From an uncultured Ignavibacteriales bacterium (GTDB lineage Bacteria > Zixibacteria > MSB-5A5 > GN15 > FEB-12): a stretch of DNA of 64,000 nucleotides. Made by a program: the position numbers and the translations under genes. The notes beneath the pieces were generated by a model that saw nothing but the letters and a program-made list of their open reading frames with translations, was not told the origin of the DNA and did not search any database. The stretch is taken from NCBI GenBank assembly GCA_964397415.1, contig CAYNIJ010000010.1, forward strand, positions 22,021 through 86,020, written 5' to 3'. This document shows positions 8,091-38,075 of the stretch, piece by piece; within the stretch, counting starts at the first letter, position 1, and the number at the start of each line of letters is the position of its first letter.

Positions 8091-8570
8091 TCAGCGCTTG
8101 ATCAGTCTTCCCTCGTCATCGCGGTCGGCTATCCCCCACTTGCTCAGGTCCCCTTCGGTGCGAAGAACCGGCAGCGCGTTGAGTTTCTCGGCGATCTTTC
8201 TAGTCACCTCATCAAAGCGCTCAATGTCTGGTCGAATGCGGACCTTCTGAGTTGGACCATGCAGAAACAACATCCGCTTCCGTTCTTTGGCCTGGAGAAT
8301 TTCGGTGAACAGCAATTTCCCGCTTCGAAAGAGGGATTTTTGCTCGATCTCTTGCTCAGTGACAGTAATGCGATAAAGAAGCAACTGCAGAGAACCAAAG
8401 ATGGCCATCGCGATGAGAGCACCGCCGGTGAGCATCGATGGCGTGTGGTTCAGCTTGATCCCATCGGCCAATCGCATTCCGCCATAGACGACGACCGCCG
8501 CAAAGAGAATCAGATTGAACCACCTACGACCGGGGGTGTAGGTAACAGAAAGGTCAATGGAAGAATACAT
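8091..8570 (-). CDS. Small membrane protein: two TM helices plus a PH-like (bPH/YdbS-like) C-terminal domain, function unknown
   Basis: 159 aa. Two hydrophobic helices (FNLILFAAVVVYGG, GGALIAMAIFGSLQLLLY) followed by a soluble roughly 90-aa domain. Architecture only; no catalytic motif. Confidence 0.5.
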   Translation of the reverse strand: MYSSIDLSVTYTPGRRWFNLILFAAVVVYGGMRLADGIKLNHTPSMLTGGALIAMAIFGSLQLLLYRITVTEQEIEQKSLFRSGKLLFTEILQAKERKRMLFLHGPTQKVRIRPDIERFDEVTRKIAEKLNALPVLRTEGDLSKWGIADRDDEGRLIKR

Positions 8571-8626
8571 AAAGCAAATGCCCTTTCCACGAACTGCTAT
8601 GGCGCATCAATCAATTGCTTAAACAC

Positions 8627-9487
8627 TCAACCCTCCGAATTCGGCTCTTTGGAGGCAGTATCGGATCCTTTTGGTTTTGCCTTTGACGCTTTGGTATTCT
8701 CGTTTTTTCCGGCAGGCTCAGATGACTCAATCGGCAGAAGTGTTCCATCAGAAGTAATAAAAAAGGATGAGGAATGCGGATACACTCTGAAGGGAGTGCC
8801 TTCAGCAGACCCTACATGAAGTTTTCCCATATTGGCCCAGTTAGCTCCTCTCAATGAAGTCTGACCGAACATCAAAGATTGGTATGCACTTTGGTCAATT
8901 GTACTGCTAATTGACGAAATCGCACCCATTATGGATGAGGTTCTGGCTGCTAGTTCCGAAACGGCCTCTTGCAGAGCCGCAAGAGACCTTTCTACTGGCT
9001 GACCGCTCGAGCGCAGGCTCTGCAGGTCTATTGCGGTTGAAATCGGCGACTCAATCGGAGTGTCACTGGATTCCAAGTGTCGTATGTGTGCAATAATCTC
9101 CGTCTTGGCGATTTCAACCGAATCAAGATCTGTGTGGTCCAACTGAATAGTCCTAAGTGACGCAACATCGAAGGGAATCCTCTGACCCTTTTCTATTATC
9201 TGTATGAACGGCTTTCGAAGCGCGTGCCTGACGGCAAGTTCATAGAAGACATTTGGATTCCATTCAGTCAAATCTGCAATCACAAGGGCGTCATCAACTA
9301 TATGCTGGATTATCTGACTAGTGATCAGACCCGGTTCCGAAATCTCATCAGCTCTAGTAGTGTGGTAACCACACTCAGCGGTTGCGGGCCGAATGACATG
9401 CTTGAGGATCTTGTCCGACCGTTTACGAGTCGCTGAATCCAACTCACCTATTGGGGCAATTACGAAACACCTTTTAATCTCCGCCAT
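8627..9487 (-). CDS. Hypothetical protein with an N-terminal TIR / nucleoside 2-deoxyribosyltransferase-like Rossmannoid domain
   Basis: 286 aa. N-terminus CFVIAPIG...RADEI...VIADLTEWNPNVFYELAVRHALRKPFIQI matches, from memory, the FVIMPF...ADLT..NxNVxYElGxxHA signature. The C-terminal half is Ser-rich coil with a Lys-rich tail. GGGAGG SD 5 nt upstream. Lower GC than flanks. Confidence 0.55.
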   Translation of the reverse strand: MAEIKRCFVIAPIGELDSATRKRSDKILKHVIRPATAECGYHTTRADEISEPGLITSQIIQHIVDDALVIADLTEWNPNVFYELAVRHALRKPFIQIIEKGQRIPFDVASLRTIQLDHTDLDSVEIAKTEIIAHIRHLESSDTPIESPISTAIDLQSLRSSGQPVERSLAALQEAVSELAARTSSIMGAISSISSTIDQSAYQSLMFGQTSLRGANWANMGKLHVGSAEGTPFRVYPHSSSFFITSDGTLLPIESSEPAGKNENTKASKAKPKGSDTASKEPNSEG

Positions 9488-35141: not shown

Positions 35142-35170
35142 AAGATAGATGTCCAGGGCTGGGCGGTCAA
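35142..35170 (-). promoter_or_regulatory. Putative sigma70-type promoter TTGACC-17-TATCTT for smg-coaBC-udg-dnaB...
   Basis: ggtcaa at 35165-35170, aagata at 35142-35147, in the 95-nt gap after the yceI stop. Confidence 0.45.
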
Positions 35171-35209: not shown

Positions 35210-35842
35210 CTATTCCTTGGCGGGCCAGTCAGGGAGCGAAATATCGGTTGCCGGTAAGTTGTTGTAGCCGGAGAAAATGCACTCAACCTCGATCGTTTCC
35301 GCCAATTTGAGGAACAGTGCTTTTGGGCGCGGAATATCGTACTCGTCAAGAATGATCTGGAATCGGGTACGAATTGACACCTTTTCTCCCCCTTGCTCGG
35401 ACGTTATGCTAACCTCAATTGGCGCGGAAAGCTGGCGTTTGACGCCATGGATATAGAACCAGCCGCGCACTTCTCCGCTGTCCTTTGCACCGGCATGAAG
35501 CGGTTCAAGCCCGGTCACTCCTTTCAATTCAAAATAGGCATACGGGAATTTCTCCGTATTCAGATGCCGGTCGCGCATGTGTTCATCCCGCGTGTCAATC
35601 CCGGTCTTGAGAGTTCGCAGGTCCACGCGCAGGAGCCCAGAGGCATTTGAGTCAGGTCTGGCCGGATCGAACGAAATTGAGCCGTCAATCGCCGCGCTTT
35701 TCCCCTCAATGAACTCCAATTTCGCGGTGGAACGGAAGTAAACCGAGTCCTGCCTTGCTGCCGGATTCAATTGGAAATCGGCCGCAGATATCGGCGCCGC
35801 GAAGAGAAAGAGTAGCGTACATACACTGGAAAACTTGTTCAT
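35210..35842 (-). CDS. yceI: YceI-like periplasmic polyisoprenoid/quinone-binding protein
   Basis: ATG at 35842 (GAGGT SD) gives the signal peptide MNKFSSVCTLLFLFAAPISA. YceI-like pattern SVYFRSTAKLEFIEGKS...GSISFD...LRTLKTGIDTRDEHMR. Starts 13 nt after the stop of the upstream gene. Confidence 0.75.
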   Translation of the reverse strand: MNKFSSVCTLLFLFAAPISAADFQLNPAARQDSVYFRSTAKLEFIEGKSAAIDGSISFDPARPDSNASGLLRVDLRTLKTGIDTRDEHMRDRHLNTEKFPYAYFELKGVTGLEPLHAGAKDSGEVRGWFYIHGVKRQLSAPIEVSITSEQGGEKVSIRTRFQIILDEYDIPRPKALFLKLAETIEVECIFSGYNNLPATDISLPDWPAKE

Positions 35843-35855
35843 GGGACACCTCTGG

Positions 35856-36917
35856 TTAATTGTCGGGCGCGCCGGCATTGATCCAGTCGCGGAGCTTGTT
35901 CAGGTCAGTCGTCGAGATGTATGGTCCACCCGGAGGCATTCGTGAGCCGAATTGAGGCGAGGTTGTGGCCTTGAAATAAAGGCTACTAGTGCCGGCACTT
36001 CCCGGCACAACGGCTGCGCCGTGGCCGCCACTCGCATGAAACACCGCATGATAGGTAGCTGAGCCGAGATTGAGCCCTCCCTCGGCCGAACTTCCGCCGT
36101 GACACCCGGTAATCGCGCACCTCGCCAACAGTAGTGGCTGGATATGGCTCGCGAAACTGGGGGCATCGTCATCCAGAATCGTACAGGTCGCCATACTATC
36201 CAAAAACATCCCGTTAGACAGCGCGGTCAGCCTGATGGTGAACTCCTCAATCGGCTCAAAAACTGCATCCTCGGATGTGACAATAGACAACACTGCGGAG
36301 AGCTGACCCGGCGGAATTGTATCTCTCCCGCTTGCCATAATGAAATCAGCAGGTGCCGTCGCGGACCCCGCCACCAGACTGAAGTCAAAGATAACCGGTA
36401 AGATGCCGGCCTTATTGAGTTCGACCGTGACCTGAGCCATCTCACCCTCAACAGCCGATGTGTCTCGTATGGTGACAAACGGCACCCCGTCGTCGTCCAG
36501 TATGACACATGTGGCCTCAGCTTGTGTAATGACGGCGTTTGTGGCGCTGAGTATCTTAATCGTGACCTCTTCCAGGGGCTCAATCTGGTCATCTTGAAGA
36601 AACTCCAGCCCGACATGAATATGATTCTCCGCATGACCGCTGCCATCGGATGCTTCTATCGTCACCGTGTCGGTTCGTGCCTCAAAATCCTGACCCGCGG
36701 TAGCGGTGATCCCTTCAAAGGTATAGATGATAGTCACCGGACGAGGAGCCTCAAAACTGAGTTCAAACTCGCACTCGGCGATGTCACCCTCGTTGGTCGT
36801 GTCGCTGTGAACCGTCAGTTCCGGAACTGGTATCTCTGGCAAACTTCCAAAATCTGTACATCCTGATACCAGGACGACCACGACGATTGCGAATATCAGC
36901 AGCGGTTTCATTTTCAT
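35856..36917 (-). CDS. Lipoprotein with two Calx-beta domains and a C-terminal Planctomycete-cytochrome-C (PSCyt1)-like domain
   Basis: 353 aa. Lipobox LVSGC. Two Calx-beta modules ending ATCVILDDDG and ATCTILDDDA. C-terminus HIQPLLLARCAITGCHGG...GGLNLGS...VVPGSAGTSSLY...RMPPGGPYISTTDLNKLRDWINAGAP. CAITGCH verified at nt 36099-36119. Confidence 0.7.
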   Translation of the reverse strand: MKMKPLLIFAIVVVVLVSGCTDFGSLPEIPVPELTVHSDTTNEGDIAECEFELSFEAPRPVTIIYTFEGITATAGQDFEARTDTVTIEASDGSGHAENHIHVGLEFLQDDQIEPLEEVTIKILSATNAVITQAEATCVILDDDGVPFVTIRDTSAVEGEMAQVTVELNKAGILPVIFDFSLVAGSATAPADFIMASGRDTIPPGQLSAVLSIVTSEDAVFEPIEEFTIRLTALSNGMFLDSMATCTILDDDAPSFASHIQPLLLARCAITGCHGGSSAEGGLNLGSATYHAVFHASGGHGAAVVPGSAGTSSLYFKATTSPQFGSRMPPGGPYISTTDLNKLRDWINAGAPDN

Positions 36918-36920
36918 TCC

Positions 36921-37955
36921 TCAATAGCCGACATGGAATTGCACGAAAAACAGGTCCTCGCCATCCAGAAAACCTCGCGTGTACTTCGTGTACGATGGGC
37001 GGATCTGCACAAACGGCATGGGATAAAAATCGATGGAGAAACGAAGATATTCGTCCACTCCGGTCTCCAGTCGCCGGTCAGGGTCGAAGAAATTGTACTC
37101 GCCGACTAGATAGAAACCGTATTCGATTCTCCCGACAAGACTCGCGTACATAGCGATCTGATCATTTCCCTTCCCTACGACATCCATCTCTCCCATCGCG
37201 GTGAAGCGATCATACGCCAGCCCTCCATACAGCGATTTTGCATGCGGGAAGAGGCCGAAGTCATCTGGTCCGATCTCATCCGTAAAACGGTAGGAGCTCC
37301 CAACCAGGTAGCTGAACGCGCCCAATGTCCCCGGCCGATAGAGATTGAGATTGATGACCTTCTGCTCGTTTGGATTGAACGCCTCGGCTATGAGATTTAC
37401 TCCAGCAAATTCACCCGACAGGGATACGCCATCCAAATAGACTTCAGCGCCATTCCCCGTCCTTTCCCGGACAAATGACTTGTGATCCTCCACATGCAGG
37501 CCGAACGAAGGCGTGAAGGTCCCAAACTTGGCGGAGTATTTATTATCATCGAAGGTCATAAGCGCATAGTTCTCAGTGACGCCATTTGCGCCTATGCGCA
37601 TATGATAGAACATATTTCGAAGCGGCTCGGCCGTGACGAACCCATCCGTCTGCATCCGGAAGATCCTGCCATCATCTATTGCCAGATAACGGACATCGAA
37701 CCCGAGAATCAGTAATTCTCCAACCCGAGGTTTCCGATACTGCGACGCCAGCCACTTCTTGGTGCTTGGTAGTGTCAGTTCGTTGAAAGCAGTGGTAAAG
37801 TTACCGTACTCCGTACGGGCACCTCCCCCTGCCGGCGAAAAGTGGCAGTTCTTACAAGGCTCAGCATGCTCCACCGACAGTCGCGGATATGCGAGGAGTG
37901 AAGCCGCACAGATAAGAAGCAACCCAACCACAGGGATGGCGATTTGACGATTCAT
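36921..37955 (-). CDS. Outer-membrane beta-barrel with an N-terminal CXXCH heme motif (Cyc2-like fused cytochrome-porin candidate)
   Basis: 344 aa. Signal peptide MNRQIAIPVVGLLLICAASLLAYP. CKNCH at residues 34-38 (nt 37842-37856, verified TGT AAG AAC TGC CAC). About 300 aa of amphipathic strands. C-terminus FFVQFHVGY with alternating hydrophobics and a terminal aromatic. Confidence 0.6.
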   Translation of the reverse strand: MNRQIAIPVVGLLLICAASLLAYPRLSVEHAEPCKNCHFSPAGGGARTEYGNFTTAFNELTLPSTKKWLASQYRKPRVGELLILGFDVRYLAIDDGRIFRMQTDGFVTAEPLRNMFYHMRIGANGVTENYALMTFDDNKYSAKFGTFTPSFGLHVEDHKSFVRERTGNGAEVYLDGVSLSGEFAGVNLIAEAFNPNEQKVINLNLYRPGTLGAFSYLVGSSYRFTDEIGPDDFGLFPHAKSLYGGLAYDRFTAMGEMDVVGKGNDQIAMYASLVGRIEYGFYLVGEYNFFDPDRRLETGVDEYLRFSIDFYPMPFVQIRPSYTKYTRGFLDGEDLFFVQFHVGY

Positions 37956-38047
37956 GACTGCGCTTTCTTCTAACGGTCACACGGAATGAGATAACTGAGC
38001 CAGCCGCCCGCCCGGCTGAGTCTGGCCGGCCTTGTTGTACAGAGAGT

Positions 38048-38075
38048 CCGCAGGCTGCTATCGTACAGCCTGCGG
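38048..38075 (-). terminator. Strong hairpin 39 nt downstream of purH (terminator-like, no U-tract)
   Basis: ccgcaggctg ctatcgta cagcctgcgg: perfect 10-bp GC-rich stem with an 8-nt loop. A second 6-bp hairpin (cagccg/cggctg) lies at 38001-38018. Confidence 0.4.

Follow-up and report, generated by a model that had tools for sequence, protein, structure and literature searches.

Microbial iron oxidation is inferred from genomes mainly by one marker, the fused cytochrome-porins of the Cyc2 type. Here, we analysed a 64,000-nucleotide stretch of the contig CAYNIJ010000010.1 (the window), assembled from an uncultured bacterium under the label Ignavibacteriales, and in it a block of three adjacent genes A, B and C. 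Gene A encodes a predicted haem-bearing porin, gene B a lipoprotein with a cytochrome c domain and gene C a protein of the YceI family. The A protein is a member of a large family of fused cytochrome-porins that has no name and is distinct from Cyc2 as defined. What is new here is this distinct family with its conserved and undescribed partner set, whereas the general kind, the Cyc2-type architecture, is already known.

Several described systems come close to the block. Cyc2 has a signal peptide, one CXXCH motif and a 16-strand barrel with structural similarity to OprO/OprP, and its Fe(II)-oxidising examples are Acidithiobacillus ferrooxidans Cyc2, Mariprofundus Cyc2PV-1 and Ghiorsea Cyc2TAG1 (PMC8406198, PMC13692758). 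FoxE is a His/Met dihaem Fe(II)-oxidising c-type cytochrome of Rhodobacter ferrooxidans (PMC10654088). The YceI family members bind polyisoprenoids or ubiquinone-8 and occur with cytochromes (PMC8981238, PMC9113575). In Cbp2D, c-type cytochrome domains are joined in one protein with a YceI-like domain that binds ubiquinone-8 (PMC8981238), and the YceI protein BcnA acts together with a cytochrome b561 (PMC9113575), so the link between YceI and cytochrome b561 drawn in a preliminary description of the window is documented.

The block can also be likened to MtrCAB, MtoAB and PioAB, as it is predicted to combine an outer-membrane barrel and a cytochrome for electron passage over the outer membrane. 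The porin-cytochrome complexes are, however, 26-strand barrels that sheathe separate decahaem proteins (PMC8406198), whereas A has 16 predicted strands with one fused haem and B has one haem. No publication in the searched literature names both 'YceI' and 'Cyc2', in keeping with the first impression that this is not a described system. The papers that treat Zixibacteria together with Cyc2 are on iron-cycling potential assessed with FeGenie, and this block is described in none of them.

We read the block as an envelope redox module, in which A and B would pass single electrons across the outer membrane and YceI would be a third partner. Our estimate of the probability of this reading is about 0.55. 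The genes and motifs behind it are as follows, with the positions counted from the first letter of the window.

36921–37955, minus strand: gene A, open reading frame (ORF) of 344 amino acids (aa), predicted fused monohaem cytochrome-porin
35856–36917, minus strand: gene B, ORF of 353 aa, predicted cytochrome c lipoprotein
35210–35842, minus strand: gene C, ORF of 210 aa counted from the MNKF start, YceI family
37842–37856, minus strand: CKNCH haem-attachment motif of A (residues 34–38), then FSPAGGGAR; based on invariance among homologues
35859–36188, minus strand: haem domain of B (residues 244–353); based on alignment, AlphaFold2 (AF2) model and profile matches
36099–36119 and 35934–35942, minus strand: CAITGCH (CX4CH) and RMP of B, respectively

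The haem-porin family and Cyc2

Gene A encodes a signal peptide, a helical N-domain, a 16-strand β-barrel and a C-terminal ...FHVGY. Its N-terminus reads MNRQIAIPVVGLLLICAASLLA... and contains the single CKNCH at residues 34–38, of which C34, C37 and H38 are invariant in 46/46 aligned homologues with identities from 79% down to 19%. The AF2 model built on the alignment of the 46 homologues has a mean predicted local distance difference test score (pLDDT) of 89.8 and a predicted template modelling score (pTM) of 0.84, with the helical N-domain at residues 24–72 and all 16 strands. Foldseek aligns this model with the 16-strand porins OmpM1 (E 3.9e-10), OmpT/OmpU and OprP (2o4v, query-normalised TM-score 0.60). 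By the sequence features and the model, A would be an outer-membrane 16-strand porin carrying one covalent haem c on its N-terminal ~50 residues, as Cyc2 does.

The family escapes the common domain models. Gene A has no match in Pfam or NCBIfam even at E up to 1, and a search of the PDB sequences with the A profile gives only insignificant matches, to the CxxCH region. A profile search of 1.84 billion representative proteins yields 2,727 clusters (defined at 50% identity) with a threshold of E ≤ 1e-3, of which 329 reach E ≤ 1e-30; most are 340–410 aa long. CxxCH is present in every representative that covers the N-terminus. A search with two family members against plasmids by tblastn found nothing.

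Several further positions are well kept in the family. The signature CxxCH-x-[NSD]-x-x-G-[GAS]-G-x-R occurs in 184 of 199 sequences, and in 195 of them a Pro precedes the first Cys by exactly 10 residues. At the other end, the His at position 341 (H341) is 92% conserved, and 89% of the family members end in Tyr or Phe.

For the comparison with Cyc2, the criteria were those of Keffer et al. 2021 (PMC8406198) and FeGenie, namely AXPXFAR[Q/K][T/Y] upstream, PXL about 4 residues after CXXCH and a length of at least 365 aa. Like Cyc2, A has a signal peptide and a single CXXCH near the N-terminus, and its short helical cytochrome domain is predicted to be fused to a C-terminal 16-strand porin barrel with an OprP-type match. 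The Pro 10 residues ahead of the first Cys is another likeness, and many relatives have an A-x-P-x-[FL]-[AS] run resembling the Cyc2 motif there.

Unlike Cyc2, A is with its 344 aa shorter than the 365-aa FeGenie cut-off, as is 45% of its family, and the family has its own signature CxxCH-x-N-P-x-GGG-x-R. The partners differ too, being a PSCyt1/FoxE-type lipoprotein and YceI for A but cyc1, cox and rus in the reports on cyc2. A resembles Cyc2 by architecture and is not a Cyc2 by the published definition, from which its motifs and length set it apart.

The A family has the same architecture as Cyc2 yet is invisible to surveys, because the Cyc2 motif and length filters fail and no Pfam or NCBIfam model exists for it.

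The tethered cytochrome and the YceI protein

Gene B has a lipobox LVSGC with Cys20, as read from the sequence. Pfam finds two Calx-beta domains (1.9e-11) and a C-terminal PSCyt1 domain (PF07635) in it, the latter at residues 271–329 with 31.2 bits against a gathering cut-off of 22 (E 3.5e-7). The haem domain was aligned as the last 110 residues from 82 loci, and C24, C29, H30, S68, M84, P85, W102 and A107 (alignment numbering) are invariant in all 82 sequences. Its AF2 model has a pLDDT of 89.1 and a small helical fold.

The two Cys of the haem motif are spaced by 2 residues in 39 sequences, 4 in 37, 6 in 3, 3 in 2 and 5 in 1. That of the window is 4 (CAITGCH, CX4CH). Although the motif ranges from CX2CH to CX6CH, its two Cys and its His are invariant in the aligned domain, as is the distal Met-Pro. 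The conservation of the haem motifs had been set beforehand as a test that could refute the redox idea, and the ligand Cys and His were found invariant in A and B alike.

FoxE of Rhodobacter ferrooxidans SW2 (PDB 5MAB) is periplasmic. The B-family profile aligns to both FoxE haem domains (5mab, E 2.5e-15), to the haem domain of the hydrazine synthase alpha subunit (1.5e-8) and, more weakly, to cytochromes c6 and c555. The B family and FoxE have the elements C..CHG, RMP(L/P)G and WI..GA in common, and therefore His/Met ligation is implied for B. Judged by its family profile, the haem domain of B is a genuine c-type cytochrome domain akin to FoxE. The preliminary description had called B a cytochrome-like lipoprotein, which understates the domain.

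B differs from FoxE in having one haem domain instead of two, in being lipid-anchored on Calx-beta or immunoglobulin-like (Ig-like) stalks instead of a soluble chain, and in its Cys spacing, which is CX4CH in the window and 2–6 residues in the family. Neither foxY nor foxZ is found near the block in the window or in the neighbourhoods of the other loci. The domains that form the stalk, between lipid anchor and haem domain, differ among the loci: the window has two Calx-beta domains, many relatives have a single one, the locus L010 has an Ig domain of a different type, and the versions of 130–155 aa have no stalk domain.

Two side observations concern gene B. After the lipidated Cys, the mature N-terminus has a conserved C-[S/A/T]-D-x-G-x-x-P, which is CTDFGSLPE in the window (36837–36860, residues 20–27), and an Asp is at +3 in 50 of the 67 B proteins with a recognisable lipobox (B genes of L001–L128). 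This could be a signal for lipoprotein sorting or surface export, or a motif for docking to the porin. The B gene is also often in tandem, in two or three copies (L004, L005, L017, L051, L053, L067, L068, L069 and L076), and in L004 a glyoxalase-family gene is inserted between A and B.

Gene C matches the Pfam family YceI (PF04264) with 62.6 bits against a cut-off of 23.7 (E 7.2e-17). It has a Sec signal peptide ending ...PISA/AD and is a secreted lipocalin; phmmer with gene C alone finds no close solved relative. The haem-porin, the lipoprotein and YceI had all been recognised correctly in the preliminary description.

As in E. coli yceI-yceJ and Burkholderia bcnA-lcoA (PMC9113575), a secreted YceI protein is here genetically coupled to haem proteins, and a YceI-type protein is coupled to haem proteins also in the YceI-like X158 domain of Cbp2D/E (PMC8981238). 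In yceIJ and bcnA-lcoA the partner is an inner-membrane b561, whereas gene C is paired with an outer-membrane haem-porin and a c-type cytochrome lipoprotein. No cytochrome b561 gene is adjacent to gene C, whose neighbours are gene B and smg. Separately, the YceI gene seems split over several frames in L014 (5622–6201) and L023 (7776–8398), which could be due to frameshifts or assembly errors.

One might take A for an ordinary porin with a structural or metal-binding CxxCH, and the three genes for neighbours only as envelope products. In fact, the haem of A and B is predicted here from sequence motifs, and A matches nothing in Pfam, NCBIfam or the PDB sequences. However, hundreds of divergent A and B sequences all have the two Cys and the His, B is homologous to cytochromes with known haem binding, and the block moves as a unit between genomic contexts. 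Such a non-redox explanation is very improbable in our estimation. Two proteins with invariant c-type haem ligands, one an outer-membrane barrel and the other a tethered cytochrome, are encoded together across phyla; the haem loading, the A-B contact, the substrate, the electron direction and the YceI ligand of the redox module are inferred.

Gene linkage and the proposed electron path

The genome scan took one genome per species and gave 48 loci, in which the neighbours were located by tblastn with the window proteins. B is directly after A in 40/40 informative Zixibacteria-type loci (L001–L042), and YceI then follows B in 38 of the 40, with the A identity to the window down to 39%. Conservation of the synteny had likewise been set in advance as a refutation test, and it is this A-B-YceI order that was found. 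The block lies between purH and smg-coaBC in about 28 of the 40 loci and is intact with other flanks in 12 (L015, L026–L032 and L034–L037).

The gaps are estimated as 110–230 nucleotides (nt) from purH to A and 57–95 nt from C to smg, and the B-to-C gap is −7 to +55 nt in most loci and 100 nt at maximum. In the subclade off the purH/smg position, L026 has a rubrerythrin-family gene just downstream of the block (8292–8789) and an HD-domain gene upstream.

Beyond these loci, the pair of A and B is found in other arrangements. The distant A homologues of gammaproteobacteria (24–27% identity) lack YceI, and a B-type cytochrome lipoprotein is encoded immediately 5′ of them; one unclassified marine bacterium has the order A-YceI-B. 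In the cultured gammaproteobacterium Aliidiomarina halalkaliphila IM 1326 (L045, 5102–7059), the B-A pair comes directly after an ABC-2 transporter, with a 301-aa lipoprotein containing CxxCH overlapping the start of a 351-aa haem-porin. This cultured carrier of A and B makes the module testable and is a possible experimental model.

For the metagenome scan, the 42-sequence alignment of the A family was too divergent as a query, and a narrower alignment of another A subfamily was used instead, so the sample of 80 loci is biased to that subfamily. Of these, 31 have at least 900 nt on both sides: the B domain is adjacent in 18, YceI in 7, both in 6 and neither in 12. The other frequent neighbours of the A family in metagenomes are cupredoxins (7/84), reaction-centre-type cytochromes, CHRD, DUF2231, cbb3-type cytochromes and cytochrome P460. 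Small electron carriers, namely cupredoxins, cbb3-type cytochromes and P460, are among the neighbours where B is absent.

Hence, the ancient core is a haem-porin with a small electron carrier, which is usually B, with YceI as a third partner in Zixibacteria and certain other lineages. YceI is not essential to the A-B core, because it is missing from two Zixibacteria loci and most of the well-flanked metagenome loci do not have it. The three-gene unit proposed at the outset is thus conserved in Zixibacteria, whereas the A-B pair is the ancient core and YceI occurs in some lineages only. The A family is core to Zixibacteria. Its conserved partners are a cytochrome akin to FoxE, which is an iron oxidase independent of Cyc2, and a putative YceI carrier of lipid or quinone, and they suggest a route by which electrons would exit from the pore haem.

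In the proposed module, A would be the outer-membrane porin whose pore haem exchanges electrons with a small redox-active solute entering the barrel. B, anchored to the membrane, would be a FoxE/PSCyt1-type cytochrome c with one His/Met-ligated haem, held on an Ig-like stalk that varies in number and type of domains. The haems of A and B would exchange electrons with each other and so link the solute in the pore with the periplasm. YceI would be a periplasmic, lineage-specific isoprenoid-binding lipocalin whose most likely task is to connect the chain with quinone or a different isoprenoid lipid. This is the most economical role for gene C, because the YceI proteins bind polyisoprenoids and ubiquinone-8 and occur with cytochromes.

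As to the solute, Fe(II) is the leading candidate because of the analogy with Cyc2 and FoxE, and Cu(I) remains an alternative because of the cupredoxin neighbours. The same neighbours, cupredoxin or plastocyanin-type genes and, B and YceI apart, among the commonest of the A family, could be taken to indicate an outer-membrane oxidase for metal detoxification. Its pore haem would oxidise incoming Cu(I) or Fe(II) ahead of the periplasm, and B or a cupredoxin would drain the electrons with no energy conserved. That the block in the window has no link to respiratory genes fits this. However, no copper-resistance genes lie beside the Zixibacteria block in the window or the loci, and YceI is left unexplained, so that detoxification appears to us a rather improbable purpose.

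The constancy of YceI in Zixibacteria bears on another explanation, an outward conduit coupled to quinone or an antioxidant system. There, YceI would carry quinol, an oxidised isoprenoid or a lipid radical between the inner and outer membranes, B would oxidise or reduce this YceI-borne lipid, and oxidants outside the cell, for example Fe(III), humics or reactive oxygen, would receive electrons from the A haem. It would be an outer-membrane counterpart of BcnA (YceI) and LcoA (cytochrome b561), which detoxify lipid peroxyl radicals. The retention of YceI in nearly all the Zixibacteria-type loci with very short B-C gaps, and the ubiquinone-8 and polyisoprenoid binding by YceI relatives that occur with cytochromes (PMC8981238; PMC9113575), speak for it.

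The conserved housekeeping position across the phylum would also suit such envelope maintenance. Against it, quinone binding by gene C is drawn by analogy, gene C has no close solved relative, and the A-B pair goes without YceI in Gammaproteobacteria and many metagenome loci. Moreover, many Zixibacteria inhabit anoxic settings, where lipid peroxidation is a lesser problem. On balance, we regard the conduit or antioxidant explanation as unlikely.

In its boldest form, the module would be a previously unrecognised quinone-coupled electron chain across the outer membrane, made of single-haem parts in Zixibacteria and several other lineages. YceI would ferry an isoprenoid quinol over the periplasm, the stalk-tethered FoxE-type cytochrome would take its electrons, and the compact Cyc2-like pore haem would give electrons to, or take them from, extracellular iron or other redox species. 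We hold this extended form to be doubtful. If true, it would mean that the respiratory chain extends to the cell surface without any multihaem cytochrome, and that at least 2,700 sequence clusters of the A family escape current iron-gene surveys such as FeGenie.

Several points weigh against the envelope redox module itself or limit its scope. The A family is known here from sequences and models only. P.FAR[QK][TY] occurs in 0/199 A-family sequences, the window's AYPRLSVEH keeping only the A and P, and PxL is within 2–5 residues of CxxCH in none of the 199, with CKNCH-FSPAGGG in the window. Foldseek with the B haem-domain model gives nothing significant (best match hydrazine synthase, E 0.098). 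When phmmer is run with only the B domain of the window, it fails to reach FoxE and finds no solved relative, and so the kinship of B with FoxE holds at the family level.

The genomic context adds to these points. L025 and L033 are without YceI and have smg directly after B, and YceI is near A in just 7/31 well-flanked metagenome loci of the wider family. In most Zixibacteria, the block sits among the housekeeping genes purH, smg and coaBC, and it is not adjacent to oxidases or bc complexes. We argue that a general envelope redox function fits better than a dedicated lithotrophic or other specialised energy pathway, because the housekeeping position is conserved and no oxidase or bc genes are adjacent. 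If the module transfers electrons, the estimates of which uncultured bacteria of soil and sediment contribute to extracellular redox cycling would change, and the YceI proteins would gain a concrete role.

Boundaries, transcripts and sequence context

The minus-strand gene order in the window is purN, purC, purH, A, B, C, smg (DUF494), coaBC and a uracil-DNA glycosylase gene. The gap between A and B is exactly 3 nt (TGA gga ATG) and that between B and C is exactly 13 nt (TAA ccagaggtgtccc ATG), so both the ORF coordinates and the junction letters agree with the tight packing on one strand noted earlier. Two elements flank the block.

38048–38075, minus strand: hairpin 39 nt after the purH stop codon; based on folding energy and conservation
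35142–35170, minus strand: promoter-like TTGACC-17-TATCTT for smg-coaBC, at the 3′ boundary of the block; based on promoter scan and conservation

The hairpin has a stem of 11 base pairs (bp) and a folding energy of −22.9 kcal/mol (z = −5.64), and 0/200 shuffles fold equally well. It is conserved in the three closest relatives (L001–L003), with both sides of the stem changed in L003. The strong hairpin first noted after purH, then with a 10-bp stem, is therefore real by the fold statistics and conservation. A stable hairpin is directly 3′ of purH in most Zixibacteria loci, and several are followed by a uridine tract (U-tract). That of the window is without a U-tract and absent from the terminator-scan list, and because of the lacking U-tract it is called only terminator-like, not an intrinsic terminator. 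It is likely a terminator or RNA-end element that divides purH from the block.

The promoter-like element has 9/12 matches in the promoter scan, and its TATCTT box ahead of smg is invariant in six loci with proteins only ~50% identical. The promoter proposed for the next operon is thus recovered by the scan and by conservation. In the C-smg spacer of L001, L002, L004, L010 and L018, the TATCTT −10-like box (35142–35147 in the window) is kept with TTGnnn 17 nt upstream, a pattern that hints at a promoter consensus of the Zixibacteria phylum.

Transcripts related to the block are found in environmental data, and the exact organism at depth was found in no RNA run. In a soil metatranscriptome, four stretches of A are covered by contigs with 95–99% identity to the window, of which one spans the A/B junction (36791–36938) and another extends 67 nt upstream of the A start codon. 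A sediment metatranscriptome has an identical contig within C, and a contig of a mud 'RNA-Seq' run spans the B/C junction (35813–35960). The junction-spanning contigs agree weakly with co-transcription of A, B and C, because they are about as long as a single read and carry-over of DNA is possible.

The block is likely a self-contained transcription unit. As for the single unit of the preliminary description, the contigs over both junctions lend some support to joint transcription, whereas the self-containment is less clear since every neighbouring gene shares the strand of the block. No promoter was recognised 5′ of A and no terminator 3′ of C.

The Rfam search found zero RNA families anywhere in the window. 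Recent horizontal transfer of the block was considered and dropped, because its guanine-plus-cytosine content of 51–56% is not anomalous. The closest relatives of the window carry Zixibacteria labels, and the window sequence is present in rock, sediment and soil metagenomes.

The labels of some loci conflict with each other. L001, 94% identical to the window and fully syntenic, is labelled Ignavibacteriales, and L002, also 94% identical, Zixiibacteriota. L004 is labelled Deferrimicrobium and L016 Calditrichaeota, yet both share the purH/smg synteny. L001, L004 and L016 are probably mis-binned or mislabelled contigs of metagenome-assembled genomes.

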